Translations under genes and position numbers: made by a program
The notes under the pieces: model-generated
The model's input: the letters and a program-made list of their open reading frames with translations, nothing else
What the model was told of the DNA's origin: nothing
Database searches by the model: none
Shown here: positions 4,093 through 34,015 of the stretch, piece after piece
Position numbering within the stretch: the stretch's first letter is position 1
Layout: every line of letters begins with the position of its first letter
Assembly (NCBI GenBank): GCA_964574785.1
Contig: CAZNPP010000010.1
Location: forward strand, 6,353 to 58,166
Direction: 5' to 3'
DNA: 51,814 nucleotides
From: an uncultured Chloracidobacterium sp.
GTDB lineage: Bacteria; Acidobacteriota; Blastocatellia; Pyrinomonadales; Pyrinomonadaceae

Positions 4093-4106
4093 AGTACACT
4101 CCCATG

Positions 4107-9237: not shown

Positions 9238-9245
9238 GCGAAAGA

Positions 9246-10343: not shown

Positions 10344-10489
10344 CGTGTTTCACTGTGCCTTTTGCGCTATACGATGAGAATTGCGACGTTCAGGCGTCGG
10401 TTTTCTCCCACCGCAGAGGCCGGAAATAATATAGAAGTAAAAGCCATCGAATTGAGAATCGGCAACTAATGAAGGACGAGGTGAAGAAC

Positions 10490-10936
10490 TTACTGATTAG
10501 ACGGCACTGCCTTCCTCCCATCCATCAACTCTGGCGTAATGCGGTAGAGCGCAATAGTGTTCGAGCGCCCCCAGGCATCAACTTGTGTTGCGCTCAAAGC
10601 CGGCGTCAAAGTTGGATTGCGTTGGGTGATGAGTTGCATTGCTCGTTCCATATCCTCTGCCGCAGTAAGTTTTTGTGCCTGACCGATTATCACCACACTC
10701 TGCCAATCACGAGGATCGCTCACTTCTTCAGCTTGAAAGCAGACTTGGGGGTTGGCTTCAATAAAATCGGTTTTCATTCCTTCCGTTGTGAAAAGGTAGA
10801 TGTGCTGCCCATCATAAGCATAGTTCATTGGAAGCACGTAAGGACGACCCTCGCGAGCACAGCCAAGATGTCCAAAACTTGCGCGAGACAGTAGCGCTTG
10901 CATCTCTTCCGGTGTCATGTCTTCGACTCTAACCAT
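10490..10936 (-). CDS. Pyridoxamine 5'-phosphate oxidase-fold (FMN-binding split-barrel) family protein
   Basis: 148 aa. The pattern FGHLGCAREGRPYVLPMNYAYDGQHIYLFT...VCFQAEEV is typical of this family. It is a clear paralogue of 48648..49175. Confidence 0.7.
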   Translation of the reverse strand: MVRVEDMTPEEMQALLSRASFGHLGCAREGRPYVLPMNYAYDGQHIYLFTTEGMKTDFIEANPQVCFQAEEVSDPRDWQSVVIIGQAQKLTAAEDMERAMQLITQRNPTLTPALSATQVDAWGRSNTIALYRITPELMDGRKAVPSNQ

Positions 10937-10960: not shown

Positions 10961-12082
10961 TTAGATATAGCGCCAGTATTTTTCGTGTATTCGTTTTGCC
11001 CAACCCCAGAAACGTCCCTGGCGAACCGTTGCTGGCTTGTCCTCCCAGAGCGCTTTATGCAGAAATATTGTATCAGCGCCGCCTTCATCAATCACCAGCA
11101 TAATTTCATGATTGTATGTGGCTTTGCGCCCGGTCCCTTTTATTTCAGCGGCAAGATTTTCAGCAGCCACTTCTGCTTGATGTACTGCCATGTGCCCAAG
11201 TTTTGGTCCCGGGAATCCAACACAATCACCGGCAGCGTAGATACGGTCCGCTCCTTGGACTTTCATCTCCTGATCTACTCTTATGTAGTCTTCATCGTCC
11301 GCTATTCCTGCACTTCTTGCAACACTTGAACCGCGGAATGGCGGTAGCAACATCAATAACCGATGCTTTATTGCCAGCCCTTCGTCGGTCATCACCATTC
11401 CCGGTGTAATTGTTTCAATTTTGAAGTCGGGTATGAACTCGATATTGTGGCCCTCCATAGCGTCACGCAAAGCGATGGCAATATTGCCATCGCCAAATTG
11501 AAGTCCAGGAGGCTCGGGACTGACAATCGTTATGCGTGCTTGTTTGCGTTGCCCGCTCTTTTCTAACAAGCGTGATAGAGCGAATGCGGTTTCGTAAACC
11601 GGAACCGGCAATCGTGCCCCAGGGCACTGGCCGATGACTGCTCGTCCAGCACTAAAGTCAGAAACTGCAACCCCGAACCTAAGCGCTGCGTCTTCGCTCA
11701 AAAGGTGGTGAGAATGCTCGAAGAACCCTGTCACTCTTTCGGAAGCAAGGCGCCGGCCCATTGCGCAGAAAAGAAAATCGTAGGAGATTTTTCCCTCAAC
11801 CTCTCCATGAGCCGTTATGACGTGTCTGGTTTCGGGATCAATGCGAGCAACCTCTGCCTCAATGAATTGAACCTGATGGCTGAGTAAAATTTCACGGAGG
11901 TCGGAGGTGACGTCATCTGAACGACACTTTCCGAATGCCAGTCGCACTAAAGCTGGGTAGAAGATAAATTTGTTGCTGCGAGAGATGAGCGTGATTTGGT
12001 GCTCTCTACCCAAACTCTTGCTCAACGTTTCAGCGGCAACAACGCCACCAAATCCGCCGCCTATGATTACAATCCTGGCCAT
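10961..12082 (-). CDS. NAD(P)/FAD-dependent oxidoreductase of the SQR / NDH-2 type
   Basis: N-terminal IVIIGGGFGGVVAA (GxGxxG). A second dinucleotide region is present. C-terminal IYAAGDC flavin motif. 373 aa. Confidence 0.8.
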   Translation of the reverse strand: MARIVIIGGGFGGVVAAETLSKSLGREHQITLISRSNKFIFYPALVRLAFGKCRSDDVTSDLREILLSHQVQFIEAEVARIDPETRHVITAHGEVEGKISYDFLFCAMGRRLASERVTGFFEHSHHLLSEDAALRFGVAVSDFSAGRAVIGQCPGARLPVPVYETAFALSRLLEKSGQRKQARITIVSPEPPGLQFGDGNIAIALRDAMEGHNIEFIPDFKIETITPGMVMTDEGLAIKHRLLMLLPPFRGSSVARSAGIADDEDYIRVDQEMKVQGADRIYAAGDCVGFPGPKLGHMAVHQAEVAAENLAAEIKGTGRKATYNHEIMLVIDEGGADTIFLHKALWEDKPATVRQGRFWGWAKRIHEKYWRYI

Positions 12083-12135
12083 GACTTTTCCTTTTTTTGC
12101 AGGCTCGGTGGCCGAAGTGGACAGATGGTGCTGCT

Positions 12136-12183
12136 CCTGCCCCTGCCTCCCGCCCCTGCCTCCTGCCCCTGCCTCCTGCCCCT
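12136..12183. repeat. 13-bp tandem repeat CCTGCCCCTGCCT, about 3.7 copies (G-rich on the transcribed minus strand)
   Basis: Units lie at 12136-12148, 12149-12161 (one substitution), 12162-12174 and, partially, 12175-12183. The last unit overlaps the stop codon of the 8-haem cytochrome gene. Confidence 0.8.
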
Positions 12184-13750
12184 ATTTCTTCGGGTGGCAT
12201 TCAGCACATTTAAACCTGGAAATATCACCAAGATTTATCGGATGTACAAAAGGTCCGATACCTTTATGACAAAACCCACAGTCCTGCTCTGAAAACCCAC
12301 CTATATCAACAGGATGTTGGAATGAAGCTGTCTTCTCAGGAACTGCGGCCGAGTCTTCAAGCACCTCATGGCAGATGTTGCAATCATTTCGCACGACCTT
12401 GCCGGTCTTGCTCACGTGCTCGCCATCATGACAGCGAAAACACCCCGAAGAGTACAGGTGCCCGATGTTGTTTGGGTGCGTCTGCCAGTCGGTCTTCATC
12501 TCCGGGAAAAAATAGGTCTGGTAGATTCGCTGGACCTCAGTTATTGCCTGTTCAATATTCTCCCGCTTCTGCGCATAAATCTCGCTATAGTTGGCGCGAT
12601 AAAAGTTATCTAAACCGCTTGCGATAGATTTTACGGCCTCTTCAGTTGTGTTGTAAGGTCGGGTTAACAATTCAACTCCTTGCCGCTTCAAATATGGTAG
12701 TGAAGTATCAAGCTTACCTGCAACGAACGCCTGGTCAAGAGCTGTGTCGGGAGGCAAATAGATATGAGCAGGGCGATTGTGACAATCGACACAGTCCATG
12801 CGACGTTTTGGGGCGCTGGCAATTTGTTCCGGGCTGAGCGGCCTGTGCTTGTCAAAGTATTCAGTTACGTTTCCGTTCCTATCCTTAATGCTCATCCAGG
12901 GAATTACCTGACGCTGATCGTCGATTGAGATATAAGTAACTTCGTTGGCGATGTTCATGTGCCAGTGGATCCCGGCAACATGTCCTGTAGCGGGACTTCC
13001 GCCGCCAACGTTGATGAGCATTCGTGTCCGACGTAGTGTGTTCTGTTCATCATACGCATAGCGATTAAATACTTTGAGTTGTGCTCCAAAAAATTTTTCG
13101 GGCCAATGACATTGTTCACACGTATCTTGTGCCGGTCTAAGGTTGTGTACCGGTGTTGTTATCGGGCGGGAGTATTTGTTGAAAGTAACTGAGTATAACT
13201 GGTAAGCACCGGAAAGTTTTGAGCGCGCGTACCAACCGGCGCCTGGTCCAACGTGACAATCAACGCAGCGCACTCGTGCATGCGGGGATGCGAGATAAGC
13301 GGTGAGTTCCGGTTTCATTACCGAATGGCAAGTCTCTCCACAAAAGGCTACCGATTCGGTATATTCGTACGCTCTGTAGCTGCCAAAAGCGCTGGCGAAA
13401 AGAAATATAAAACTAACAACAGAGAAAACCAATAGTCCACGGCGACTTTGAGGATCGTTCAAATCAAGCTTTGGATAAGCCAGTATTTCGTCTGGCGAGA
13501 GTTGTCGTCGTCGTCTCCGCTCAACCAGCATACCGGCAACCACGACTGTTATCCCGAAGATCATGACTGCGGGAAAAATGATGTAAGCAAGAATTCCTAA
13601 ATAGGGATTCTCAGCACTCGCGGTAATCTCAATCAAAACCAGAAGTAGAGTGCTCGCGAGGCTCGCAGCCACTATTGCGGCGCCTGCAAAGCTGATGTAG
13701 TTGCGGAAAAGACTAGGGGTTTTCGAAACCTGAGTTGTTTCTTCGCTCAT
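12182..13750 (-). CDS. Membrane-anchored octahaem c-type cytochrome with a NapC/NirT-like core (ImcH-like)
   Basis: 522 aa with three N-terminal hydrophobic helices. Eight CXXCH motifs: CGETCH, CVDCH, CEQCH, CVDCH, CFRCH, CNICH, CGFCH, CAECH. The first four show NapC/NirT-like spacing. The ImcH assignment is architectural only. Confidence 0.8.
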   Translation of the reverse strand: MSEETTQVSKTPSLFRNYISFAGAAIVAASLASTLLLVLIEITASAENPYLGILAYIIFPAVMIFGITVVVAGMLVERRRRRQLSPDEILAYPKLDLNDPQSRRGLLVFSVVSFIFLFASAFGSYRAYEYTESVAFCGETCHSVMKPELTAYLASPHARVRCVDCHVGPGAGWYARSKLSGAYQLYSVTFNKYSRPITTPVHNLRPAQDTCEQCHWPEKFFGAQLKVFNRYAYDEQNTLRRTRMLINVGGGSPATGHVAGIHWHMNIANEVTYISIDDQRQVIPWMSIKDRNGNVTEYFDKHRPLSPEQIASAPKRRMDCVDCHNRPAHIYLPPDTALDQAFVAGKLDTSLPYLKRQGVELLTRPYNTTEEAVKSIASGLDNFYRANYSEIYAQKRENIEQAITEVQRIYQTYFFPEMKTDWQTHPNNIGHLYSSGCFRCHDGEHVSKTGKVVRNDCNICHEVLEDSAAVPEKTASFQHPVDIGGFSEQDCGFCHKGIGPFVHPINLGDISRFKCAECHPKK

Positions 13751-13778
13751 TTATTTCCTTCGTTACAGAAGTATTGTA

Positions 13779-15725
13779 TTAGTCAGCCTTACTAACTGAG
13801 CCCCCATCTAGATCGAGTTCCGAAGATTCGGCAACTAGCGCTTGCTCTTCACTCGCTTTGCGTTGCTCCTCGATTAGTTGTTCATAATGAAGTTCGTGCT
13901 CTTCCTTATAATGTTCTTCGGATTCTCGGCCGTCGTAAAACGCCCAATTGATCGGGTAAACGTCAGGATCAAAGATCACATGGTAGAAGTGCCAAACAAC
14001 GATTGCCAGCGTAGCCAAAACGGCTTCATAGAAGTGTATTGCGAGGGCAACATCAAGCCACCAGCGTGGCAGAAATCCAAAAACTCCTAGCTTGAACCAT
14101 AGCACCAGCCCGGTGATGGCCATGATGATCGTGCCCCATACTACGGCCCAATATTCTGCTTTTTCAGGATAACCAAAGCGAGCCAGCTTTGGTTTTTGCT
14201 TTTTAATGCCGAGATAGTAGCCGACATTCTGAAGGAGATCCCGAACATCTTTCCCTTTGGGTAGCATGTCTCTGAGCCAGGATTTACCCTCCTTTGCCAG
14301 TAGCAGGTAAGCGATGTGATAAACGCCTGCAACCATCATGACCACGGCGGCAACACGATGCGAAATTCTCCGAATAGCTTCGCTTGAACCAAGCAGCCAC
14401 GCGAACCACGAATCCGGATATTGAAGAGCAAAACCGGAGATGACAAGCACAATGAAACTGGAGAGTAGTAGCCAGTGTTGTATTCGCTGGTTCGTTGTTA
14501 GACGAACGATAGTACGTCCTGGATGAAGCCGCTTAGCGTGAGCCTTCTTACGCCAGATCAAGGCGTTGTGAATCACCATTCCACCAATTACAAGAAAGAT
14601 CAGCGGGAGGTAGATTCGCCGCACCCATGTAGTACCTATAGTGGCCATGTCAGCACTGGTGACTTCAGGACCATAAAGATGAATCCTACCTTGCGCGAAA
14701 TTGTCTCCAGCCCCTGGATGACACTGACCACAAGTTTGGGCAAGGTTCTTTGCATGGATCATTGACGCTGGATCGGAGGACGGCAAAATATTGTGAACTC
14801 CGTGGCAACTTGCGCAGTTCGCCACAGTCTTTGAGCCAAGTCTGGATGCCAAGCCGTGATAACTGTCTTTGTAGCTGCTGACACGACCAGCAGCCACGCC
14901 AAACTCTGTCGTCAGAGTGACTCCAGCATGACATTGCTCACAACTAGTCGATGCGATCCTTTGGGTTGCCGTTCTTGTACCCGGTTCCAACGGTGAAATA
15001 ATGCTGTGAATACCATGGCAGTCGGTACAGCCCGGTGAACGGGATACTCCACGAGCTACCGCCTTTCCGTGGACACTCTGGTTGAACTCAGCAGCTATAC
15101 TGGCATGACAAGTTCCACATGTTGCGGAAATACGGGGCTTGAAGATCAATGATTCAGGATCCGAAGCCGGCAAGATGTCATGGCTGTTGTGACAATCGGT
15201 ACAAACTGCGGCAGAGAGGTTGCCATGAGCAACGGCACGAGCGTGCACACTCTCCTGATAAGAAAGAAAGGGCCGGTCACTGATGTCCGTTCCTCGCATT
15301 ACAGCGGAATCACCGTGACACTTCCCACAGGTAACAGCAAGGTTGGCGCGGTGTATGGGCGATTTTGGGTCTGATGCTGGTAGTAAAGTCGTTAGATCCC
15401 CATTGATTGCGTGGCAATCCACACACGTTGCGGCCTTCCTTCCATTTTGCAGTGCTCGTGCATGGAAACCGCGATCATAAGAGTTATGCACATCTGCATG
15501 GAACAACGCACCGCCAAGGTAAGGGAGCACCCTGCCGCCAGCATGGCAGCCCTGGCATTCAAGTTTTGCCCTTGATGGGTCCGGTTGCTTTCGATCATCA
15601 CTTTGCTGCAGCGTAGAACCTGCTAAGCCTCCGGGACTGGGGGCGGATGTTTGGCCTGGAGACTGATAGAGGAGGCAAACTGTCAATAAGATTGCGAATG
15701 CAGTGCTAAAGACATACTTTTTCAT
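13779..15725 (-). CDS. Nonahaem c-type cytochrome fused to a C-terminal multi-helix b-type cytochrome domain (CbcL-like)
   Basis: 648 aa with a signal peptide. Nine CXXCH motifs: CQGCH, CVDCH, CGKCH, CTDCH, CGTCH, CTDCH, CEQCH, CASCH, CGQCH. Five hydrophobic helices with conserved His follow (IQHWLLL, SHRVAAVVMMVAGVYHIAY, IHFYEAVLATLAIVVWHFYH). Confidence 0.8.
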   Translation of the reverse strand: MKKYVFSTAFAILLTVCLLYQSPGQTSAPSPGGLAGSTLQQSDDRKQPDPSRAKLECQGCHAGGRVLPYLGGALFHADVHNSYDRGFHARALQNGRKAATCVDCHAINGDLTTLLPASDPKSPIHRANLAVTCGKCHGDSAVMRGTDISDRPFLSYQESVHARAVAHGNLSAAVCTDCHNSHDILPASDPESLIFKPRISATCGTCHASIAAEFNQSVHGKAVARGVSRSPGCTDCHGIHSIISPLEPGTRTATQRIASTSCEQCHAGVTLTTEFGVAAGRVSSYKDSYHGLASRLGSKTVANCASCHGVHNILPSSDPASMIHAKNLAQTCGQCHPGAGDNFAQGRIHLYGPEVTSADMATIGTTWVRRIYLPLIFLVIGGMVIHNALIWRKKAHAKRLHPGRTIVRLTTNQRIQHWLLLSSFIVLVISGFALQYPDSWFAWLLGSSEAIRRISHRVAAVVMMVAGVYHIAYLLLAKEGKSWLRDMLPKGKDVRDLLQNVGYYLGIKKQKPKLARFGYPEKAEYWAVVWGTIIMAITGLVLWFKLGVFGFLPRWWLDVALAIHFYEAVLATLAIVVWHFYHVIFDPDVYPINWAFYDGRESEEHYKEEHELHYEQLIEEQRKASEEQALVAESSELDLDGGSVSKAD

Positions 15726-15765
15726 TGTGCTCTCGAGTCAGTTCAAGTACAGCAAAACGCAGGAA

Positions 15766-15843
15766 CTCCTATGTCGCCTCTGAAGCACATCAGCGACATA
15801 GGAGAATTTAGAATAACGGTAGGCCCAAATGGAAAAGGGGCCT
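15766..15843 (-). terminator. Two stem-loops downstream of the monohaem cytochrome c gene (putative terminator or processing region)
   Basis: A perfect 12-bp inverted repeat CTCCTATGTCGC / GCGACATAGGAG lies at 15766-15777 / 15793-15804. A 6-bp stem AGGCCC / GGGCCT lies at 15821-15843. The T-runs on the minus strand are only modest. Confidence 0.4.
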
Positions 15844-15878
15844 AAAGATCACGAGCTTAATGAAGGAACCGACTAATC

Positions 15879-16223
15879 TTATTCGCCAGCTGAAGCCTTC
15901 AACTGCTTCATGTAAGTTACCAGTTCCTTAGCCTGATCGGCATTGACACCTTTGGTTTGGTACTCGGGCATATGAGGAGGCTTCTCGACCTTCTTTCCCT
16001 TCAGAACGGTTTCAATGAGCTGCTCATCAGGTAAGCTGGCATCAAACTTCTTTTCGGCCTTAGCGCCATGACAGGCAAAGCACTTCCCCTTATAGAATGT
16101 CGCTGCGTCCTGCGCTTGAGCGTTACCTACAGTTGCTCTGGGAAAGACGCTGAAAAGCATGAAGGCTAACAAGGACATGACAAGAACGGTTGCGAATATC
16201 TTTATCATTTTGAAGGTGACCAT
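15879..16223 (-). CDS. Monohaem class-I cytochrome c, membrane- or signal-anchored
   Basis: 114 aa with an N-terminal hydrophobic helix. Single CFACH motif and a distal PPHMPEY segment that could supply the Met ligand. Confidence 0.8.
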   Translation of the reverse strand: MVTFKMIKIFATVLVMSLLAFMLFSVFPRATVGNAQAQDAATFYKGKCFACHGAKAEKKFDASLPDEQLIETVLKGKKVEKPPHMPEYQTKGVNADQAKELVTYMKQLKASAGE

Positions 16224-16395
16224 GGGTGATTCAATCTTCCTTTTTCGAAGTCGGAACGTCTACTTTTAACGTCCACCTACGGTCGACTGCGCAATGTTCG
16301 TGCCGCACCAGAACCCTCAAAGATCTAACAATTAACTCGTAAGTCTAGCTATTGTTCAGCTTAAGCGCGATGACACTTGCGGATTTTGCCCAAAC

Positions 16396-16417
16396 GCCTG
16401 CGAAAGTTTTCGCAGGC
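16396..16417 (-). terminator. Stem-loop GCCTGCGAAA-GT-TTTCGCAGGC downstream of the c3-like gene
   Basis: Perfect 10-nt complementary arms. It is flanked by TTTTGGG on the plus side and GTTTGGG on the minus side. It lies 21 nt after the stop at 16438. Confidence 0.45.
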
Positions 16418-16437
16418 TTTTGGGCTCCGTTGCTTTC

Positions 16438-17079
16438 TTAAGCCGCGCTCCGCTTGTGGCAAGCAGTGCATTTCTTGGTTGTTGGGGGATTTACGTCCGT
16501 TCTGTTTCTTGCCACCTCGTCGTGACACCCGGCGCAATTGCGGTGATAAGCCTGCTGGTTTGTCAGTGAGATCATCGCAGTTCCCACTTCGAACTTCATC
16601 TCAGGAATAGCCGGTAATAGCTTTGGTGTCTCGCCAGCACGAGAATGACAGTTGCGACAGGCAGCTACCCCAGCCTGTTCAGGATTCTTCTCCAATAGCT
16701 CTGCAGTCAAAGTAGTTGTGCGATCGGCAGGCCACGCAGTCTTGAGTGGTGGATGCTTGGCTACTTCTTCTTGCGGCTGGGCCGTGTGGTGACACTCAAT
16801 ACACTCCATCGGTCCGCGCGAATCCAAGGTGTAATTTTTCGTTGTATGATTGATGTGGCTAAAAGTAACTGCACCTAGCTTCGCTTCCGCCGACAGCTTG
16901 TAAGTATTCTCGGGCTTCTGTGCGGTTTGGATTGCTTCAGGCTTCGGCTCCAACCCGATTTTTGCCGCGCTTGGTGCGAAGATCAGTCCAATACCGAAGA
17001 CCGAGATTGCAAGAAATTTGATTGGTTTCACGACTCCCTCCTTTATCGGTTCCGTCCGCATATTATTGTTCTGAAACAT
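16438..17079 (-). CDS. Tetrahaem cytochrome c3-like protein
   Basis: Four CXXCH motifs (CIECH, CRNCH, CAGCH, CTACH) plus the FSHINH pattern of class III cytochromes. The ORF extends to 17172, but the ATG at 17079 forms a TGATG overlap with the upstream stop and precedes the signal-like helix. An alternative start is 17061. Confidence 0.8.
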   Translation of the reverse strand: MFQNNNMRTEPIKEGVVKPIKFLAISVFGIGLIFAPSAAKIGLEPKPEAIQTAQKPENTYKLSAEAKLGAVTFSHINHTTKNYTLDSRGPMECIECHHTAQPQEEVAKHPPLKTAWPADRTTTLTAELLEKNPEQAGVAACRNCHSRAGETPKLLPAIPEMKFEVGTAMISLTNQQAYHRNCAGCHDEVARNRTDVNPPTTKKCTACHKRSAA

Positions 17080-17990
17080 CAAAACTGCCAGGTCTTTCCT
17101 GTATGGCATCGGGTGCAAACAGAAAAATCGTCGCCTCCGAAAGCCTTCGTGCCATTGTGGCACGTAATACAACTCTGAGTCCTCCCCGAAGCATGATGTT
17201 GCGCTGCCTCCGGCGAAGTCACTTGTCGCCGCTGTGGTTGTCCAGCGCGTATCAGATGGCAGTCATTACAGTTCAGTTTCTGAGTGGAAGAATGATTTCT
17301 ATGGCTGAAGCTCATGTTAAAGGCCCGTCTCAATACCGGTGTGCGTGTATATCTTCCCAGTTGGTGGCAGGTGCCACAAGAGGAAATATCTCGTCCCTGC
17401 GCCCGAGCACGCGGCGTATGACAACGGTAGCAGGTAGTATGGGCACTAAAGCTAACGGGAATCGAGAAAGCAACTCCACCTCTTGAAGGCCTGTGGCAGG
17501 TTGCACAAGTCACACCTGACATCCCCATGTGACGAGCATGATCAAAATTTACTCGGAAGCTTCTCATTCGAGGGAATGGCTTGAGCGCGCCTGAGGACGC
17601 ATCAGTGTGACAAATTGCACACATTGGGCTCTCGGAGTGAGCGAACTGTTGTGAATGGCAACCAGCGCAGGGCAAATGACCAGATCCTGGCATGGCTGGA
17701 CGGGGAGCATTGGTCTCCCGTCGATGGCACAAAAGACAGGGGAGGCGAGCATGGTGGGCGCTGCCGTGGAAGAAACGTGAGTAATCACTCTGAGCCATCA
17801 TTTCGTTAATAGATGTCAACGGAGAATCCTCAACTGGGACAGGGCTCGAGACTGACGAGTTCGTTGCCGAGTTCCCCCCAGGCGAGCATGATAGACAGAT
17901 GATCACTATTGAGCCAACTAGACTTCCGAGCCGAGTCAGCAGTGATACTGAATCATGATTCCGTGAAGGTTTTTGGCGCGTTCGAACCAT
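17079..17990 (-). CDS. Nonahaem c-type cytochrome lipoprotein (three c7-like trihaem units)
   Basis: 303 aa. Lipobox-like IICLSC after a hydrophobic stretch. Nine CXXCH motifs: CLLCH, CAGCH, CAICH, CATCH, CYRCH, CGTCH, CNDCH, CITCH, CTRCH. They fall into three groups, each preceded by an F.H..H-type segment. Confidence 0.85.
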   Translation of the reverse strand: MVRTRQKPSRNHDSVSLLTRLGSLVGSIVIICLSCSPGGNSATNSSVSSPVPVEDSPLTSINEMMAQSDYSRFFHGSAHHARLPCLLCHRRETNAPRPAMPGSGHLPCAGCHSQQFAHSESPMCAICHTDASSGALKPFPRMRSFRVNFDHARHMGMSGVTCATCHRPSRGGVAFSIPVSFSAHTTCYRCHTPRARAQGRDISSCGTCHQLGRYTRTPVLRRAFNMSFSHRNHSSTQKLNCNDCHLIRAGQPQRRQVTSPEAAQHHASGRTQSCITCHNGTKAFGGDDFSVCTRCHTGKTWQF

Positions 17991-17997
17991 GAACGGT

Positions 17998-19233
17998 CTA
18001 CTTCACCCCCTCAATTGCTTCAATATGGTTGCTAGGTGTTTGCTCCTTTCCCAAAAGGATATGGCATTTGGTGCACTCAAAATTAGGATTTTTGTTCTTC
18101 TCTTCGATCTCAAAATTGAGAATCCCATCGGTGTTTGATTCGATGTGGCAGCCTGTGCCGCCACCTCCGCACGACTTAACCGAAACCAGGGTTTTCTCAT
18201 CCAGTGTGTTCATCACTGCTGGGACATGGCAGGTCACACAACTCAGTTCGGCATGCAGAACAAATTCATGCTGGAACCTGCCAGCGCTTCGCATTCGCCA
18301 CTTATTCAACGTGATGCGGTCTGTTATACCCATCATCGTGGCAAGCTTCTGTTCGAAATCTCGGCGAACCTGTGGTTCAAGCGGACGAAGGCGATGACAA
18401 GTCCCGCACTCTGCAGGCGCTGGTGTTATTCCTGAATCTTCGGAATGACAGGTAAAACAGGCTGCGTGATTGCGTGGTGTTGTCTTGAAGGTACCCTTTT
18501 TCAACCAGAAGGCATCTTCTGAAAGCTTTGCAGGCGGAACCGTAACGAACTCTTGATCGGAATCGCCTTGCGGTTGATATGTCTGATGACAAACCGGGCA
18601 ACTTGTGGCTTCCTGTGCTGGCGTTCGCCTACTAAAAGAGGCATGAACAAGCCAGACCTGCGGTCGCGACGTACGAGTGCGACTAACCACGTCTACGTGC
18701 GTCTCATGAGGGAAGAAAACGCGGAATTGCGAAATGAAGTCACTAGCCTTTTTTGAAGCAGCAAAGGCCTCGTCGAGACTAGGGAACGGGTAACGATCCG
18801 TATTGCGGGGACTCACACTAATGTGGCAGTTGCTGCAGATTACGGGCGCCGGGCGTTCGCGTGCGAAGAACTGTTGCCGATGACAGTCGAGACACGACTG
18901 ATGCTCAGGAAAGTCGGTTACGTCGGGAAAGGCCTCATCACCTTCCCGTACCTCTTTCCAGTTCTTTGAGGGAAACGTGTGACAAGAACTGCATTCGATT
19001 GCGTGATTTTCATTTCGGTGTGAGAACTTTGAGTAGTCAATTTTTGGGCGCTGTGTGGTACGGGCTGCGGGTCGGCGCCTTTGAGAACGACTTTGGCTCT
19101 CAATGTAAGAAGAACTCGCAGCGACCGACGGACAGACAACTGAAATCGCCATTAAGAGCGCAGCAAAGACTGGAAAAGTACGACAGGCGATGCTTCGCCG
19201 GCTTGCAATTGTGCCAGTTAATTGAATTGCCAT
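17998..19233 (-). CDS. Multihaem c-type cytochrome (8 CXXCH plus one CX6CH-like site)
   Basis: 411 aa with a signal peptide. Motifs are CSSCH, CLDCH, CSNCH, CPVCH, CFTCH, CGTCH, CVTCH and CTKCH, plus CGGGGTGCH at 18145-18171. The c7-like F.H..H segments are repeated. Confidence 0.85.
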   Translation of the reverse strand: MAIQLTGTIASRRSIACRTFPVFAALLMAISVVCPSVAASSSYIESQSRSQRRRPAARTTQRPKIDYSKFSHRNENHAIECSSCHTFPSKNWKEVREGDEAFPDVTDFPEHQSCLDCHRQQFFARERPAPVICSNCHISVSPRNTDRYPFPSLDEAFAASKKASDFISQFRVFFPHETHVDVVSRTRTSRPQVWLVHASFSRRTPAQEATSCPVCHQTYQPQGDSDQEFVTVPPAKLSEDAFWLKKGTFKTTPRNHAACFTCHSEDSGITPAPAECGTCHRLRPLEPQVRRDFEQKLATMMGITDRITLNKWRMRSAGRFQHEFVLHAELSCVTCHVPAVMNTLDEKTLVSVKSCGGGGTGCHIESNTDGILNFEIEEKNKNPNFECTKCHILLGKEQTPSNHIEAIEGVK

Positions 19234-19280
19234 TAAATGTGAAAAGCTTACTGCATTTTCGAGAGTCAGTCCGTCCGTGA

Positions 19281-20582
19281 TCAGGCCGGCTGGTCGCTCT
19301 CGATCTGTCTGATCTTCAGGTAGACCAGCACTGCCAGGAACACAATAAACACCAGCGATACTGCTAATCCCTTACGCCTGAAAGTTAGCTCGGCAAGTGC
19401 TGCCTCTCCATCTTGATATGCTTTTGCGGCAACATTCATCCCCGTTCCGGTTACCTTTTCAACTTCGTCAGGTAAAACTGTATGGACCAGAACTCGGGCA
19501 TGCGTAACACTATCAACCGCTTCCCGCAGTTCGAATTTGGGGCGGCTAACCTCCATTCCGGAATGTTCAGCCCGCTTTAGAATCTCTGAAGACCTATCGA
19601 TCGCAACCAATAAGTCATCTATCTTAGCTCGAATCGACGCTGCGGCAATAAAACCTTTATCTCCCTCGGAATGGCATGTAATACAAATAGAGTTCGGTCC
19701 AGTTCCAACCATCTCGTCTCCCGGAGCGACAATGTCATGATTGTTATGACACTTGATGCACTCTCCTATACCCATGTTATCGAATGCTACCTTGTGGGGA
19801 CTAGCTTGAAACAACTCACCCTGGCGAACATGGCACTGTCCGCAGACGTTTGCAACCGACGCTATTCCCGGTGGGGCTGCTCCATGGTTGCCATGACAGT
19901 CATTGCAAGTGGGCGCCGAGAGATCCTGTCTCTCATATAAAGCCTTGGCATGTACGCTACCCTTGTATTTTCCATACTGGTCAGTAGGAATCGGATAGCT
20001 TTTCATGTAATCAGAGCTGCCGTGACAATTGGCGCAAGTTTCGGCGACGTTCAATGGATATACAGAGGACAATGGATCGCTAACAGACCTAATACCGTGA
20101 ACTCCATGGCAGCTAATGCAGGTCGCCACCTGAACGTTACCGGTCTTGAGTAATTTGCCGTGAACGCTTGTTTCGTACTCACGCTCCTGATCGACACGCA
20201 GGGCTGGGTTAAACTTTCTCATGAAGCTGGCATCGTTGTGGCACTTGCCGCAAAAGGCCGGAATGTCAACCGCTTTGGGTTTTCCAATGTAGCCCTTCCG
20301 CGGGTCTTTAGCGGCAGTCTTATCATCCTGAGAGGGATCACCTCCGTGGCAGTCATTGCAAGTCATTGCTCGCGACAGATGAATATCATGATCAATGGTG
20401 CGGGCTGGATCGCCAATCTCTCCTTCCAGCGTTATGTGGCACTCGACGCATGAATTCTTCTTCTGCGCATGTACTTCGGTACTACCTAAACAGATAAGAA
20501 AAAGAGTGACGATGGCAATAGCTGACGAGCCACCGTTACGGCCTCGCTGGTGACAGCTTACGTTGTGATCGAAATATAACAT
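19281..20582 (-). CDS. Nonahaem c-type cytochrome with a C-terminal TM anchor (putative c-subunit of the adjacent Rieske/cyt b complex)
   Basis: 433 aa. Signal peptide ends (VHA/QK). Nine CXXCH motifs: CVECH, CNDCH, CGKCH, CISCH, CANCH, CNDCH, CGQCH, CIKCH, CITCH. C-terminal helix [17 protein letters not shown]. Located 14 nt downstream of the cytochrome b gene. Confidence 0.85.
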
Positions 20583-20596
20583 CAGGTTCCTATTAG

Positions 20597-21655
20597 TTAG
20601 GTTACGAAGCCAACAATCGTCATCACTACAATAAAGAGGACCACAACGACACCGAATACATTAAAGACAAACCTCATTTGTGGGCTCTTCCCACGATCAA
20701 TAAAGGGAATGATGGTCCAGATCAGACCGCCTACCATGAATGCAAGAACGCCGACAACCTCCCCCTCAATGAAGAGAATTTTTGCCGGAATGTACTTTAG
20801 TGTTTGAAACATAAAGAGAAAGTACCACTCAGGCTTAATACCTGCGGGCGCCGGCGCGAAGGGGTCGGCTTTCTCTCCCAACTCCCAGGGATAAATTGCC
20901 GCGAGAGCTGCAAGAACACCAATAGCAATAATCCATCCGATAAGATCGCGCAGAAGAAAATTCGGGAAAAACTTCATCTTCCTGTGGTTAGCTTCATAGC
21001 GGGACGGCACGCTCATTCCGTGAAGCTGCACCAGGAAGAGATGGGCCGCTATTAGTATTGTTGAAATTGCGGGCAAAATAGCTACGTGAAATCCGAAGAA
21101 TCGAGTCAAGGTGGCTCCAGTTACATCGTCTCCGCCACGCAAGAAACGAAGTAATGAGTGTCCGATTACTGGAACTGCTCCAGCGATATCGGTACCAACT
21201 TTCGTAGCGAAGAACGAGACTGTGTTCCAAGGCAGCAAGTACCCGCTAAAACCGAATGAAATCGAGATTAGTAAGAGAAGAACACCAGTTAGCCAGGTCA
21301 ATTCACGTGGTTCTCTATAAGCGCGCATGAAATAAGCGCTGAACATGTGTATGAACAGCGTTAGGATCATCAAGTTTGCTGACCAACTGTGAATCGAACG
21401 GATCAACCATCCGAACTTCACCTCGGTCATGATGAACTGCACGCTCTCGAAAGCGTTTTCGGCACTTGGTCTGTAATAGAGCAGCAGGAGTATTCCGGTA
21501 ACTACTTGGACTGTAAACAGAAACAGAGTCATTCCGCCAAAGTAATACCAGACACTATGGCGGTGAAGTGGCACCTCCTTCTTACGGGCAACGGCTGCAA
21601 ATGCCTCCACACCGAGGCGTTCGTTAACCCATAGTTTTACTGATTCCACACTCAT
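20597..21655 (-). CDS. Cytochrome b subunit of a bc/b6f-type complex (fused b6 + subunit IV-like)
   Basis: 352 aa. Contains [31 protein letters not shown] and [19 protein letters not shown] (haem-ligand His pairs). Multiple TM helices. Located 5 nt downstream of the Rieske gene. Confidence 0.9.
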
Positions 21656-21660
21656 TGGCC

Positions 21661-22119
21661 CTAGGATCGTGACACAATGATCTCATCTCCGCGTGTATTA
21701 ACGACGTAGGCTTCCAGCGGTCGGGGAGGAGGACCACCTATGTTGTCCCCATTGAGGTTGTATTGGCCGTTGTGGCAGGCGCACCAGATCTGCTTAGTAT
21801 CGGTGCGATACTGAACAATGCAGTCAAGATGGGTGCATGTTGCTGAAAACGCTTTCAAATCTCCCGCAGGTGTGCGTACAAGAAGTCCCGGTTGATTGCC
21901 GAACTTAAAGATCTTGCCAGAGTTTGGAGGCATCTCTTTTAGAGTTCCGGCCGTGGTGGAACTCTGCATGGCCTCAACAATTTGAGGTGGGGACATGAAC
22001 TTGAAGATTGGATAGAGGATTGCGCCTAAAGTGGCGATAACGGTGGTTCCAAGCAGGTAATCGAGAAAGCTACGCCTGCTTGGACCTGCGGGTCGAGGGC
22101 GGCTGCTTTCAATTGGCAT
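21661..22119 (-). CDS. Rieske 2Fe-2S subunit with a twin-arginine signal
   Basis: [12 protein letters not shown] motif followed by a TM helix. Cluster-binding boxes are CTHLDC and CACHNG. 152 aa. Confidence 0.9.
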
Positions 22120-22160
22120 GCGTTCTTGAGTCTCCTTTTTGATTATGTACGTAGATGAAG

Positions 22161-22382
22161 GCTACATCGATTCACACAACGCAAGCTGGACAGCATGCGC
22201 TATATCGAATTCACACAACGCAAGCCGACAGCATGTGTACAACGATTCACACAATGCAAGCTGACAGCATACGCTACAACGTTTTACGCAACGCACGCTG
22301 GACAGCATGCGCTACATCGATTCGCACAACGAAAGCTGGATGGCGATTCACACAACGCAAGCTGACAGCATGCGCTACATGG
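22161..22382. repeat. Tandem array, about 6 copies of a 36-38-bp unit (GCTACATCGATTCACACAACGCAAGCTGGACAGCATGC)
   Basis: Copies lie at about 22161-22198, 22199-22236, 22237-22272, 22273-22310, 22311-22343 (truncated) and 22344-22382. A few substitutions or indels separate the copies. The array fills the 266-nt spacer between the barrel-gene stop (22386) and the Rieske start (22119). Confidence 0.85.
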
Positions 22383-22385
22383 CCG

Positions 22386-24476
22386 CTATTCCCGGCGACC
22401 AAAATAGATCCGCAAGGACGTATAGGGCAGATGTGCACGATAATTCTGAGCCGGGAAGAACCGATCTTTATAGTTGAAATACTGATAGCCTACGTTCCAG
22501 TCAATTGTACGGTTCAACCTCAAAGTGACGCGTGCTTCCGGTGATTGAAAAGTCATTGGATACGAGTCGATCAGAACCGTGTTGTCGGGAGAAACCCGAT
22601 CACCCTGACCGTCGTCCTTGTTAATTCGATAGCCCGCATAAAAAGTTAGTCGCCTAACGGGCTGCACAAAGGCATTGACGAAGAAGAAATTATCTCTCAG
22701 GAAATAGTGACTCTCGCCAACTCGCCTCTGGCCAGAAATTGGTAGCAGGATCCCGGCCAGGCTGGTTAATTGCAGCCGTGTGTAACCGCCGCTTAGGGAG
22801 ACCTTCGGGTCGGGAGTCCAGTCTATTGACGAACTAAAGTTGCGAGTCTTTATGTTGACGTCGAGCCGTTCAGGTGCCGTTCCTGCGGGAACATTCGTAC
22901 CAATCACTTCCGAAGGGTTTGTATTGTCTTTAGTGATGAAGGAAACGTTTAAGGAAAGTTTATTATTTGCCTTGATGCGATTTCGAACGCGGAAATTAGT
23001 GAAGTCGTTGTTTCCGATCCTAATAAATACGCTGTCGGAGTTACCGTGTTCGCCGTCAAAATAAATTGTCCACGGCTTCACCGGCCGAGCCTTGAATCCG
23101 AAGATTGCTGAATGAGTTCGATTATCGAACGCCTCGCTTAAGCGAGTGGTCGTCGCAAGTGCATTAAGAGCGCGCAATTCGATGTGACGATCAGTAAACC
23201 GATAGCCACCGTGCACAGATAGACGCGTATTGAATTGATAATCGCCTTCAAACGTATTCATGAAGCGTCGATAGTTCGTGGTCCGCTGAAAGAAGGTGTT
23301 GGTCGTTGTTGTTGAAACACGTACCCCCGCAAGCGTGAATGTATTGATGACGTCGTTGATTGAGTCGTCGCCATTTATGCGGAAGTTGTCAAATCGAAAA
23401 GTGTTTGAGATGCGCAGCTTGTTGGTAGCTAAGTAAGTGACACCGATATCTCCGAGGCTCGAGGGCCTCTTGACCTCGCCAAATGCTCTTACAGTTTGTG
23501 GCCTAATCAGGTTGCCGGGGGCAGCGCTGGCTCTCCCAAATACCTCCTCAAAGAATGTGAAGCGAGAAGTACCGCTCAGATAGACGTAGCGACCAGTAAA
23601 GTCGAGTTTTCGCGCAATTAGCCGATGTACACTAAACCTCGAGTAGAAATGACGCCCACTCGTTGGCAACTCGCGGAACATTGTATCAATGCGACCAGTG
23701 TTGGTCGGGTTGTTACCTTGATTGGTTACAGTTTCAAAAATACTGGTATTGTCTTTAAAGTATCGGGCTCCCTGGAGAAACGAAACATCAAAACCCAAAA
23801 CTTTCGCATCTACGCCTGCCCGGAAATCATTGGCGCGAGTCTCATAATTAACATCAATACCAAACTCATCGCCGGAGAATCGAGCGCTCGTTAGTCCTGG
23901 CCCCCGACGTGTATCGCGCGAGTAGCCAAAATTGAATCTGACCCGCTCATTATCAGGTAGCATTGTCAGATCGAAGTCGCCGAACTGATGCTTAGTATTC
24001 TGAGTATGCTGGCCTAAAGCAAAGCCTACGAGGTTATTGAAGTATTTCGCCCTGCGCACATTTGCATTGAACCGGTAGAGTCCAGACTTCGCGACATTGA
24101 GCCGAGTATACCCATGTGGATCGCCGCCCCAACCAGACGTGTTGACCAAAAGACTATCGAAAGGACCATTTGTGCCGTCCTTTGACTGCAGCAAAAAGCT
24201 GGAGTCAAAAGCTCGTATGCCGGGTCTGTAGTTCAGATCACTTCGATATTTGTTTTCGCTTCCAGAAAGGGAAATTCCTCGAACGCCAATTTCTATGCTG
24301 GTGATAACGTCATAGCCGGCAATTTCGTCATTCGTATCAGAAGGCTGCTGAGTTGTTGTAGCGGTTTTGCTATCCGGGGTCGGAGACGGCTTCTGCTCCT
24401 GTCCCTTGATATTCCCGGGGGCAACCAGGAGAAGGATTATGAAACCTAGCCATCCCGTTGAAGTTCTCTGTTTCAT
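22386..24476 (-). CDS. mtrB: Large outer-membrane beta-barrel protein, MtrB/PioB/MtoB-like porin of a porin-cytochrome conduit
   Basis: 696 aa. A signal peptide and a Thr/Pro-rich linker are followed by about 640 aa of alternating, Y/F/R/N/G/D-rich strand-like sequence (for example GSENKYRSDLNYRPG). There are no Cys residues. It lies 37 nt downstream of the decahaem gene. The symbol is family-level only. Confidence 0.7.
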   Translation of the reverse strand: MKQRTSTGWLGFIILLLVAPGNIKGQEQKPSPTPDSKTATTTQQPSDTNDEIAGYDVITSIEIGVRGISLSGSENKYRSDLNYRPGIRAFDSSFLLQSKDGTNGPFDSLLVNTSGWGGDPHGYTRLNVAKSGLYRFNANVRRAKYFNNLVGFALGQHTQNTKHQFGDFDLTMLPDNERVRFNFGYSRDTRRGPGLTSARFSGDEFGIDVNYETRANDFRAGVDAKVLGFDVSFLQGARYFKDNTSIFETVTNQGNNPTNTGRIDTMFRELPTSGRHFYSRFSVHRLIARKLDFTGRYVYLSGTSRFTFFEEVFGRASAAPGNLIRPQTVRAFGEVKRPSSLGDIGVTYLATNKLRISNTFRFDNFRINGDDSINDVINTFTLAGVRVSTTTTNTFFQRTTNYRRFMNTFEGDYQFNTRLSVHGGYRFTDRHIELRALNALATTTRLSEAFDNRTHSAIFGFKARPVKPWTIYFDGEHGNSDSVFIRIGNNDFTNFRVRNRIKANNKLSLNVSFITKDNTNPSEVIGTNVPAGTAPERLDVNIKTRNFSSSIDWTPDPKVSLSGGYTRLQLTSLAGILLPISGQRRVGESHYFLRDNFFFVNAFVQPVRRLTFYAGYRINKDDGQGDRVSPDNTVLIDSYPMTFQSPEARVTLRLNRTIDWNVGYQYFNYKDRFFPAQNYRAHLPYTSLRIYFGRRE

Positions 24477-24513
24477 GTTAACCGTCCCTTACCAAGTGAA
24501 TCCAAAAATTCAC

Positions 24514-25533
24514 CTATCTGAAGAAAAAGCGGTCTACCTGCGAGCCATGGATCTTTACGTGACAGGTCGTACAATTCTGGTAGCGCACAGTAGCCTGATT
24601 GTGGAAGTTCGGAGTATCAGGCGCCCCAATTTCGTGCGCGTTACTGTGACACTCAAGACAAAGAGTGCGATCGCCCCGCGCGCGCGCCAACAGTTTGGGA
24701 TTGCTTGAGCCGTGTGGCGTATGGCAAGAACTGCAGCCTTCCGTCTTCAGTGGAGCGTGCTCGAATGTAAAAGGCCCCTGTTTATCCGTATGGCATTTTA
24801 GGCAGCCGGAATCGGCTCCTGTAGCAAGTCGGGTCTGCTTTAGTTCGAAACCGCCATGCGGATTGTGACAGTCGGAGCACTTTATCAATCCTTCGAGCAC
24901 ACGATGACGAAACGGCATACTGAATTGAGCTTTTTGCTCTGAGTGACAACTTATGCAAAGCTGAGGCTCGCTTCCCCTAAGCATTGATGCCGTCCGAGTA
25001 TCAACATTGCGTCGAGCAACTTCTGAGACGAGCGTATTAGAGCCGGGGTTCGAAGCAAGAACTGTGGGATCATGCGAACTGTGGCAGTCGGCGCAACCCA
25101 CGTCATTCCGCCAGTGTTCACCGCGGCGAAAGTTGTTGTGCTCTTCTCGGCCCGCATGACAAGCCAAACATGTTTCTGAGGTGTCTTTTGCTGTCTTGTT
25201 TTTGAAGGATATTATTTTAGCAGGGTCTGCTTCTTCGATATGAGCTTTACCAGGCCCATGGCAGCTCTCGCAACCTGTGACCTTACCCTTCCAATTGCGA
25301 GACTCAGTCAGCTTAGCATGAGCTGTGTGCAAAAAATTCTTGAACTGATCCTCGTGGCAATCGCGACAAGCCTCACTCCCAACATAGTCCTCTCTAAGTT
25401 CCAAGCCACGGGATACCAAAGCATCACCAGTGGCAGTCGCGGAATCAGGGAATGAAGTTGAGGCTATCCAGAGGAACAGGGTGGTAACGACTCCCGCGAT
25501 CGTTGCAAGCTTGATAATCTTTGATGAAATCAT
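24514..25533 (-). CDS. mtrA: Periplasmic decahaem c-type cytochrome, MtrA/DmsE/PioA/MtoA family
   Basis: 339 aa. Ten CXXCH motifs: CRDCH, CESCH, CLACH, CADCH, CISCH, CSDCH, CLKCH, CSSCH, CLECH, CTTCH. Blocks resembling Shewanella MtrA as I recall it are CSDCHNPHG, GPFTFEHAP, CSSCHTPHGS.NPKLL and C.TCHVKIHGS. Confidence 0.9.
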   Translation of the reverse strand: MISSKIIKLATIAGVVTTLFLWIASTSFPDSATATGDALVSRGLELREDYVGSEACRDCHEDQFKNFLHTAHAKLTESRNWKGKVTGCESCHGPGKAHIEEADPAKIISFKNKTAKDTSETCLACHAGREEHNNFRRGEHWRNDVGCADCHSSHDPTVLASNPGSNTLVSEVARRNVDTRTASMLRGSEPQLCISCHSEQKAQFSMPFRHRVLEGLIKCSDCHNPHGGFELKQTRLATGADSGCLKCHTDKQGPFTFEHAPLKTEGCSSCHTPHGSSNPKLLARARGDRTLCLECHSNAHEIGAPDTPNFHNQATVRYQNCTTCHVKIHGSQVDRFFFR

Positions 25534-26324: not shown

Positions 26325-26644
26325 CGTCGTGAGCCGGTAAACAAAAGGCTCGAACAAGAGTCTTTGGCAAACTCTCTGAATGTTAGCCTGGAAAAGCCTC
26401 GAGTTGTCTGTTGGGCAAGCTGTATGCCCGCAGTAATAGCATAATTTCGCAGGAGTTTTGGGAAGCGAGTGGGGGCAATGAGTGCGCGCTTTTGCCCAAA
26501 GCTTGCGGAAGTTTCCACAGTTAACTGAACGTGCCGCATTCTATCATATTCCGACAGACTTCAGTTTGTCGGTTTCGTTGAGTTTGCGAACGGGCTGAAG
26601 CTACAACAAAAACGACAAAGTGAGTTTTTAGGGCGTGGGCGGAC

Positions 26645-30362: not shown

Positions 30363-30388
30363 TTCAAAACTAATAAAGGGGATAAGTT

Positions 30389-34001: not shown

Positions 34002-34015
34002 AGAGCGCAGGGACC

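Follow-up and report, generated by a model that had tools for sequence, protein, structure and literature searches.

Introduction

Outer-membrane conduits that pair an MtrA-family decahaem cytochrome with a large barrel and no MtrC are known from the Mto clusters (mtoA-mtoB-mtoD-imoA-pmcA in S. lithotrophicus ES-1; mtoA-mtoB-mtoD-mtoC in G. capsiferriformans and D. aromatica), in which the conduit genes are accompanied by those for a small class I cytochrome c with one haem and for a NapC/NirT-superfamily inner-membrane cytochrome, a CbcL-family fusion (MtoC) or both (PMC13390432, PMC6295460). Here, we describe a locus of similar composition from an uncultured soil member of the Pyrinomonadaceae. 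It consists of 12 intact, co-directional minus-strand genes at positions 10961–25533 (14.6 kb; open reading frame (ORF) listing and translation) of a 51,814-nucleotide (nt) stretch of contig CAZNPP010000010.1, assembly GCA_964574785.1; the whole of this stretch is referred to below as the window. The locus departs from the Mto clusters in several respects. Its NapC/NirT-type cytochrome is of the ImcH type, with three transmembrane (TM) helices and eight haems, whereas the Mto counterpart is the single-helix tetrahaem ImoA/CymA; it adds a Rieske/cytochrome b–nonahaem complex and three c3/c7-type multihaem carriers; its barrel is unrecognised by the MtrB/PioB hidden Markov model (HMM); its host belongs to the Acidobacteriota, not the Proteobacteria; and its genomic context suggests anoxia.

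The two multihaem inner-membrane cytochromes of the locus match the domain architectures of ImcH (GSU3259) and CbcL (GSU0274) of Geobacter sulfurreducens, with a nearly identical haem-motif register in the former and conserved CbcL-type dihaem-b ligands in the latter. To our knowledge, neither imcH nor cbcL is linked to an outer-membrane conduit in Geobacter. The imcH gene is monocistronic there (PMC4251993), whereas both window genes sit inside the conduit cluster; the ImcH-like protein also has one extra C-terminal haem, and the CbcL-like protein has five rather than six predicted TM helices and a different spacing of its first three haems. The Geobacter extHIJKLMNOPQS cluster likewise unites a porin-like protein, multihaem cytochromes and a Rieske/cytochrome b pair in one locus (PMC5877670). 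However, ExtI is a 45-kDa porin-like protein weakly similar to phosphate-selective porins, unlike the MtrB-like barrel of the window, and the ext cluster encodes a rhodanese and a selenocysteine cytochrome and is without an MtrA-type decahaem, ImcH or CbcL. In Shewanella MtrCAB/CymA, a decahaem sits inside a barrel, as predicted for the window, and that barrel, MtrB, is the best structural match of the one in the window; the mtr cluster of Rhodoferax ferrireducens (two cymA, mtrH and mtrABC) resembles the window in having alternative quinol dehydrogenases beside the conduit (PMC6295460). Compared with these two systems, the window is without an MtrC/OmcA surface decahaem and its inner-membrane modules come from different families. 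Gammaproteobacterial MtrB carries an N-terminal CXXC, which the cysteine-free barrel of the window does not have.

Each module of the locus belongs to a known family or is a close structural relative of one. A first-pass annotation, made from the sequence alone, had held that wiring three alternative quinone-pool modules to one conduit is not a characterised architecture. This stood in part: we found no published description of the cluster for Blastocatellia, Pyrinomonadaceae or Acidobacteriota in the open-access literature, and no cluster-bearing acidobacterium in our data set is a cultured or characterised organism. However, the order of 11 of the genes recurs in at least five other species-level metagenome-assembled genomes (MAGs), and with Mto, Rhodoferax mtr (PMC6295460) and Geobacter ext (PMC5877670) as precedents for such wiring, the claim of an unprecedented architecture was too strong. 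A 2018 survey found no mtrAB or mtoAB adjacent to imcH (PMC6295460); relative to it, an ImcH-type gene beside an MtrAB-like pair appears to be new, as do the combination of ImcH-type, CbcL-type and Rieske/cytochrome b–multihaem modules on one conduit and the Acidobacteriota as host lineage for such a system. Acidobacteria are not listed in the MtrCAB and Pcc surveys that we checked, and a study of acidobacterial MAGs reported large multihaem cytochromes of unknown substrate but did not describe this cluster (PMC8100337).

A Predicted Decahaem–Barrel Conduit and Three Inner-Membrane Modules in One Locus

The spacers inside sub-blocks of the locus measure 5, 7, 14, 28, 37 and 47 nt, and gene number, strand and spacing agree with the twelve co-directional genes and 5–47 nt spacers of the first-pass annotation. 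Wider gaps (266, 214, 153 and 99 nt) lie between five sub-blocks: the decahaem–barrel pair; Rieske, cytochrome b, anchored nonahaem, octahaem, nonahaem and tetrahaem genes; the monohaem cytochrome c; the CbcL-like–ImcH-like pair; and a flavoprotein (Table 1). These sub-blocks may correspond to operons. A scan for consensus promoters and terminators across the locus gave counts at or below the shuffled expectation and did not inform operon boundaries.

Table 1. Coordinates and defining features of the genes of the locus and of the ORF directly upstream, in window positions.
Feature	Position	Strand	Length	Characteristics	Support
MtrA/DmsE-family periplasmic decahaem cytochrome	24514–25533	−	339 aa	Signal peptide, 10 CXXCH	TIGR03508, 6R2Q chain A
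MtrB-like outer-membrane β-barrel (predicted)	22386–24476	−	696 aa	Signal peptide, no cysteines	AF2 model and Foldseek
Rieske [2Fe-2S] subunit	21661–22119	−	152 aa	TAT-exported	PF00355, PetC-like
Cytochrome b	20597–21655	−	352 aa	b6 and subunit IV fusion	PF00033 191 bits, PF00032
Nonahaem cytochrome c, candidate c1/f-equivalent	19281–20582	−	433 aa	C-terminal membrane anchor	9 CXXCH
Multihaem cytochrome	17998–19233	−	411 aa	8 CXXCH and 1 CX6CH, c3/c7-type domains	Pfam Cytochrome_C7, CIII
Nonahaem cytochrome	17079–17990	−	303 aa	c7-type trihaem domains	TIGR04257 43.1 bits (cutoff 40), PF14522 72 bits
Tetrahaem c3-type cytochrome	16438–17079	−	~213 aa from M32	4 CXXCH	PF02085 30 bits
Class I monohaem cytochrome c	15879–16223	−	114 aa	N-terminal signal or anchor	PF13442; CFACH, then PPHMP
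CbcL-like fusion	13779–15725	−	648 aa	Nonahaem domain and FdnI/HydC-type dihaem cytochrome b	9 CXXCH, PF01292, TIGR01583
ImcH-like inner-membrane cytochrome	12182–13750	−	522 aa	3 TM, CX3CH and 7 CXXCH	PF03264, motif register
SQR/NDH-2-superfamily flavoprotein	10961–12082	−	373 aa	Loosely part of the locus	PF07992
IS1595-transposase-like ORF	25647–26357	−	236 aa	TTG start; directly upstream of the decahaem gene, same direction	NF033547 58.9 bits, below cutoff 75
aa, amino acids; AF2, AlphaFold2; TAT, twin-arginine translocation; SQR, sulfide:quinone reductase.

The decahaem cytochrome, with a hydrophobic N-terminus at residues 5–27, scored 232.4 bits against NCBIfam TIGR03508 (cutoff 192.2), and in a phmmer search of the PDB it matched the decahaem MtrA from the structure of the Mtr complex (6R2Q chain A; E 6.9e-29). 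The gene 37 nt downstream encodes the barrel, for which no Pfam or NCBIfam match was obtained at E ≤ 0.1 and no PDB match by phmmer; of 38 barrel relatives, only one touched PF11854 (MtrB/PioB), at E 0.13. The AF2 model built with 38 homologues was all-beta, with a predicted local distance difference test score (pLDDT) of 80.9, and DSSP assigned ~26–30 strand elements, ~20 of them longer than 10 residues, figures that stand for elements rather than for an exact strand number taken from the coordinates. The top Foldseek match of the model was MtrB (6R2Q_B; E 8.8e-14, TM-score 0.64/0.68), whereas 22-stranded TonB-dependent receptors reached TM-scores of only 0.36–0.45. Judged by this model, the 696-aa protein is a large MtrB-like barrel in fold, in line with the structural expectation of the first-pass annotation; the HMMs do not place it in the MtrB/PioB sequence family. 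Pfam scans of the large ORFs of the window detected no MtrC/OmcA-type surface decahaem, and no ccm or type II secretion genes among the ORFs outside the locus, as the first reading had also noted. PF22113 matches of the nonahaem and decahaem proteins were rejected as short multihaem-motif matches, which do not amount to an MtrC architecture.

ImcH has been defined by three TM helices, a CX3CH right after the third helix followed by 5–9 CXXCH, and homology to NapC/NirT (PMC6295460, PMC4251993). In the 522-aa protein, the helices lie at residues 18–46, 48–78 and 103–125 (GSU3259: 13–35, 45–67 and 100–122), the CX3CH (CGETCH) is found at residue 137, directly after the third helix, seven CXXCH follow, and PF03264 (NapC/NirT) is matched over residues 102–195 with 47.8 bits (cutoff 24.1). 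Its haem-motif register, 137/162/211/320/437/457/491/515, parallels that of GSU3259 (132/156/205/311/428/448/486), with spacings of 25-49-109-117-20-34 versus 24-49-106-117-20-38 and one further motif at 515; the eight-motif pattern is shared by OLE50779.1, a previously published homologue from the Acidobacteria (137/161/210/319/436/456/493/517). The spacing fingerprint recurs across the wider family (HMMER search, 3672 representatives at 50% clustering). None of these representatives exactly fits the published lengths and motif coordinates of Geobacter ImcH, and no named Geobacter protein turned up when the clusters of ten candidates were looked up. An AF2 model of the protein, based on 27 sequences at 70–93% identity, was discarded (mean pLDDT 49.7, predicted TM-score 0.33); it contained three long N-terminal helices at low confidence.

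The CbcL-like gene lies 28 nt from the ImcH-like gene. Its product carries nine CXXCH within residues 57–332 and a cytochrome b domain (PF01292, 59 bits; TIGR01583, 75 bits over 406–617) in which H417, H456, H564 and H579/582 align with H18, H57, H155 and H169 of FdnI, residues that we take to be the haem ligands in the numbering of 1KQF, counted off the alignment. Five TM segments are clear (373, 418, 458, 533 and 559), against six expected, and the C-terminal tail is acidic; some homologues of CbcL with four and five TM helices were accepted by a published survey (PMC6295460). Compared with the register of GSU0274 (34/57/82/105/129/158/186/229/257; PMC6295460), the last five spacings are similar (28-30-29-42-28 versus 24-29-28-43-28), whereas the first three differ (44-32-42 versus 23-25-23). 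In a PDB sequence search, the best matches were NrfH (2J7A, E 2e-4) for the ImcH-like and FdnI for the CbcL-like protein, with no solved ImcH or CbcL structure among the results. By TM topology and motif register, the 522-aa protein is consistent with the ImcH family, and by domain fusion and b-haem ligands, the 648-aa protein is consistent with the CbcL family, as the first-pass annotation had proposed; its naming of the other modules (MtrA-like, barrel, Rieske/cytochrome b) also agrees with the HMM, structure and motif evidence.

The third inner-membrane module comprises the Rieske protein, with SRRSFL (twin-arginine) at residue 14, CTHLDC at 95 and CACH at 113, and a cytochrome b with the histidine pairs His89/103 and His190/205 and PEWY at 275. 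Going by these Rieske boxes, TAT signal, two histidine pairs and PEWY, the predicted pair is complete. The cytochrome b is without any cysteine, hence has none for haem ci, and scored 238 bits with the cytochrome b6 model and 212 bits with the ExtP model, both below the cutoffs. The gene for the 433-aa nonahaem cytochrome starts 14 nt after that for cytochrome b and accompanies Rieske–cytochrome b in 17 related loci. The protein has a hydrophobic helix at residues 401–429 and no homology to cytochrome c1 or f. Cytochromes c1 and f share a topology with a single C-terminal helix; from position and topology, we infer that the nonahaem is the c-type subunit of the Rieske/cytochrome b complex.

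A different arrangement was observed in a distant acidobacterial MAG (L003/L022, positions 3258–5326, and L004; here and below, L-numbers denote related loci or contigs carrying barrel relatives). There, the genes after the decahaem–barrel pair encode a monohaem cytochrome c, another Rieske protein and a fusion of cytochrome b with a c-type domain; the Rieske protein and cytochrome b are 29–36% identical to those of the window. A link between the barrel and Rieske/cytochrome b complexes thus seems to have arisen more than once.

Haem Inventory and Periplasmic Carriers

Canonical CXXCH motifs in the locus total 57 in eight proteins (10 + 9 + 8 + 9 + 4 + 1 + 9 + 7). The first-pass annotation had the eight proteins right and the count at 58; the ImcH-like protein supplies the 58th site with its CX3CH at residue 137. 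Across 1000 shuffles of the residues of the eight proteins, CXXCH occurred 0.32 times on average and at most 3 times, and the abundance of the motif is therefore not due to chance. A further site, CGGGGTGCH (CX6CH), occupies residues 355–363 of the 411-aa cytochrome (window 18145–18171, minus strand). A CX5-6CH is kept in 36 of 50 orthologues of this protein, and four aligned orthologues with nine CXXCH have a canonical motif in the same column. The CX6CH thus probably marks a true ninth haem site whose loop is expanded, consistent with the 8(+1)-haem label given to the protein at first reading. Because this site is conserved in orthologues, we add it to the 57 CXXCH and the CX3CH and arrive at 59 predicted c-haem sites encoded by the locus.

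The nine CXXCH of the 303-aa cytochrome are conserved in its orthologues. Its earlier description as a lipoprotein was dropped, as the lipobox-like CLSC is not conserved and most orthologues have ordinary signal peptides. The tetrahaem ORF was called at 244 aa with a TTG start and a 94-nt overlap with the upstream gene. The true start is probably M32, judging from the sequence: its ATG (17079–17077) shares 1 nt with the stop codon of the preceding gene, and orthologues, which have signal peptides, measure ~190 aa. The monohaem cytochrome c, for which His/Met ligation is likely, occurs in 50 of 80 related loci, mostly immediately before the CbcL-like or ImcH-like gene. It was also considered as an MtoD homologue, and this was rejected, since it has no meaningful similarity to MtoD 4XXL (E 0.48); the parallel with MtoD/PmcA is positional only.

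Distribution in Related Genomes

The barrel was searched for in one genome per GTDB species, and 80 of the resulting 413 loci were retrieved and mapped. Almost all of the 80 are labelled Pyrinomonadaceae, Blastocatellia, Chloracidobacterium or Acidobacteriota, and all come from MAGs. More than 1800 homologues of the barrel were above the cutoff among the candidates scored, and at least 8000 of the ImcH-like protein (all scored candidates); the few named homologues of either protein were from Pyrinomonadaceae or Acidobacteriota MAGs. The cluster is widespread in uncultured Blastocatellia, especially Pyrinomonadaceae.

The decahaem–barrel pair is kept in 78 of the 80 loci, and the order and orientation of the other modules vary around it. 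The ImcH-like gene was found in 44 loci, the CbcL-like in 21, the Rieske in 21, cytochrome b in 19, the anchored nonahaem in 17, the octahaem and the 303-aa nonahaem in 46 each, and the tetrahaem in 21. Where at least 9 kb downstream of the barrel was available (48 loci), 34 loci had the ImcH-like gene, 17 Rieske/cytochrome b and 18 the CbcL-like gene; all three inner-membrane modules were present in eight and none in five. The 11-gene order of the window, from the decahaem to the ImcH-like gene, is present in L053, L068, L074, L082 and L085, is followed in L067, L073 and L087 as far as the fetched sequence reaches, and is kept at a barrel identity of only 42–45%. All modules are present but differently ordered in three loci (L033, L035 and L084), and dozens of relatives have partial combinations. 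The closest relative, L011 (barrel identity 78%), is without the Rieske–cytochrome b–nonahaem module alone, and the metagenome contigs L009 and L008 jointly reproduce the layout of the window. The architecture is hence recurrent and modular within one bacterial class, not a one-off. Because MAG SSF22 carries two separate decahaem–barrel–CbcL-like loci (L046 and L047), some genomes hold paralogous copies of the conduit.

Proposed Function and Alternative Explanations

With slightly better than even confidence, we read the locus as a modular pathway of extracellular electron transfer (EET) that would move respiratory electrons outward to extracellular acceptors under anaerobic or hypoxic conditions. 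Menaquinol would be oxidised at one or more of the three inner-membrane modules (ImcH-type, CbcL-type and Rieske/cytochrome b). The electrons would then pass to c3/c7-type periplasmic cytochromes (with 4, 9 and 8 + 1 haems) and a monohaem cytochrome c bridging the periplasm, and from these carriers to the MtrA-type decahaem inside the MtrB-like barrel, the invariant heart of the system. Fe(III) and Mn(IV) minerals or humic substances would serve as acceptors when oxygen is absent. In this scheme, all modules presumably feed one conduit, menaquinone is the presumed quinone, and which of the carriers are periplasmic and which surface-exposed is likewise a matter of prediction.

This outward-flow reading builds on the identities and families of the parts, on their conserved co-location and on their modular recombination across genomes; the tight spacing or overlap of genes within sub-blocks was also counted for linkage. 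Modules that occur in changing order and orientation around a constant decahaem–barrel pair are what is expected of functionally coupled, exchangeable units. Outward flow is favoured because of the anoxic context and because the only role in which ImcH has been implicated to date is quinol oxidation, in metal-reducing bacteria (PMC6295460, PMC4251993). The Crp-family regulator gene that precedes the decahaem gene in many relatives and the NrfHA genes after the cluster in L002 were counted for the same reading. A wastewater-plant study that included Pyrinomonadaceae interpreted its Acidobacteriota MAGs mostly as facultative anaerobes (PMC8100337).

Several points weigh against it. The gaps of 153–266 nt allow separate transcription units within what we treat as a single functional unit, the barrel is unrecognised by the MtrB/PioB HMMs (PF11854/TIGR03509), every related genome is a MAG, and GSU3259 and GSU0274 were compared by the motif coordinates in Table S2/S3 of PMC6295460 rather than by pairwise alignment. 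The remaining points concern direction. A conduit made up of only the A and B components is the usual form in MtoAB and PioAB, the systems of Fe(II) oxidisers, and Fe(II) oxidisers use Rieske/cytochrome b for reverse electron flow (Acidithiobacillus and Sideroxydans models). The absence of an MtrC/OmcA-type surface cytochrome from the window fits inward flow, and the conserved class I monohaem cytochrome c may be seen as a parallel to MtoD/PmcA of the Mto uptake pathway (PMC13390432).

Inward flow, i.e., a Mto/Pio-like uptake system oxidising extracellular Fe(II), reduced humics or minerals, is the main alternative, and we consider it unlikely. Electrons would enter through the decahaem–barrel pair; the monohaem cytochrome c would carry some of them to a terminal oxidase, and the ImcH-like protein, the CbcL-like protein (acting as MtoC) and a reversed Rieske/cytochrome b complex would deliver others to the quinone pool. 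The minimal core of decahaem, barrel, monohaem cytochrome c and NapC/NirT-superfamily cytochrome does mirror mtoA, mtoB, mtoD, imoA and pmcA of S. lithotrophicus (PMC13390432), CbcL homologues (MtoC) stand beside mtoAB in Fe(II) oxidisers (PMC6295460), and cultured Blastocatellia are described as aerobes (PMC8100337, in general terms). However, ImcH has been linked to quinone reduction in no organism (PMC6295460), the 8–9-haem c7-type carriers resemble periplasmic cytochromes of Geobacter rather than Mto components, and the neighbouring NrfHA, pyruvate:ferredoxin oxidoreductase (PFOR) and oxygen-independent haem synthesis genes point to anoxia and not to microaerobic lithotrophy; no terminal oxidase, Cyc2 or carbon-fixation genes were found in the window or the inspected flanks. 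The genes might also form a mere respiratory neighbourhood, which we regard as improbable. The Rieske/cytochrome b–nonahaem module would then be a general complex III and the ImcH-like and CbcL-like proteins would serve periplasmic reductases such as NrfA; the outer-membrane system would then consist of the decahaem–barrel pair alone, perhaps with the two c7-type cytochromes. Four intergenic gaps of 99–266 nt, the many relatives in which the decahaem–barrel pair has one inner-membrane module or none within reach, the proximity of NrfHA in the window and in L002, and the promiscuity of NapC/NirT-family proteins as donors (PMC13390432; bioRxiv 10.1101/2023.05.03.539133) all suit such an explanation. 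Yet in 43 of the 48 loci with sufficient sequence, one or more of the three modules remain within ~10 kb of the barrel despite rearrangement, the 11-gene order has survived divergence of the barrel to 42–45% identity, and the nrf operon has its own quinol dehydrogenase, NrfH.

A surface reaction on a non-mineral substrate, by analogy with DmsEF or Geobacter ext the reduction of selenite, tellurite, iodate, dimethyl sulfoxide or an organic shuttle, seems to us very improbable. The decahaem falls in the DmsE family model, cytochrome b hits ExtP, a model from the selenite/tellurite operon, and the nonahaem matches ExtM weakly, but the ExtP and ExtM scores are below the cutoffs and no catalytic subunit (DmsAB-like, rhodanese or molybdoenzyme) was found in the cluster or its relatives. 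Potential-dependent or bidirectional electron exchange, as suggested at first reading, is a reasonable hypothesis on which the sequence data do not bear.

A bolder composite can be formulated, which we hold to be doubtful as a whole. Blastocatellia, abundant soil bacteria usually regarded as aerobes, would have a lineage-wide EET capacity missed by standard HMM screens, in which the MtrAB-like conduit is fed by three potential-matched tiers, ImcH-type, CbcL-type and a proton-motive Rieske/cytochrome b complex wired through a nonahaem of its own; the gene linkage would then reveal the proteins with which ImcH and CbcL work in the cell, and the hardware might also run in reverse. Soils, crusts and wastewater plants are habitats in which Pyrinomonadaceae and further Blastocatellia are widespread. 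If the system works as proposed, this large, overlooked group would be able to respire minerals or humics, or take electrons from them, during anoxic spells. Because the MtrB/PioB HMMs miss the barrel, such organisms would be undercounted in iron-cycling surveys based on marker genes. The linkage to carriers and a conduit seen here provides candidate partners of both ImcH and CbcL. Rieske/cytochrome b with a nonahaem in the c1/f position is, in turn, a candidate energy-conserving entry point into an EET chain.

Flavoprotein and Surrounding Genes

The flavoprotein gene lies 99 nt downstream of the ImcH-like gene, a downstream placement shared by homologues in L008 and L011; other relatives have one 6–7 kb upstream of the decahaem gene. 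Only superfamily membership is established, the score with the type III SQR model NF049943 being 146 bits against a cutoff of 525. The protein has a cysteine at residue 153, presumably where sulfide:quinone reductases carry a redox-active cysteine, and none in its C-terminal third. At the other end of the locus, orthologues of the IS1595-like ORF (46–67% identity) occupy the same position in L009, L010, L011 and L062, and it looks like a retained, possibly domesticated accessory or regulatory gene rather than a recent insertion. In 34 of the 80 related loci, the decahaem gene is preceded within ~760 nt by a gene for a Crp-family regulator, where the window has the IS1595-like ORF.

The flanks of the locus (26840–51733 and 8587–10936) include NrfH/NrfA (29910–31756), pyruvate phosphate dikinase, PFOR (41315–44860) and oxygen-independent haem synthesis genes (31753–35386). 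Also present are ferrochelatase, HemY-like and HemN-like radical SAM proteins, a hemerythrin-domain protein, a CBS-domain protein, Hsp20, tandem Usp, two PNPOx-like proteins and a two-component pair of a NarL/DosR-type regulator and a PAS-HisKA_3 kinase. These surroundings resemble a low-oxygen island of the hypoxia/dormancy type. Several of the same genes flank the cluster in L001 and L002, NrfHA follows it in L002, and Usp, GCS2-CBS, Pyr_redox_2, a PAS kinase and a sigma-54 activator are encoded upstream in relatives. On the plus strand of the window, two adjacent ORFs of ~190 aa without a Pfam match are located at 39274–39852 and 39869–40453, the first of which contains one CXXCH.

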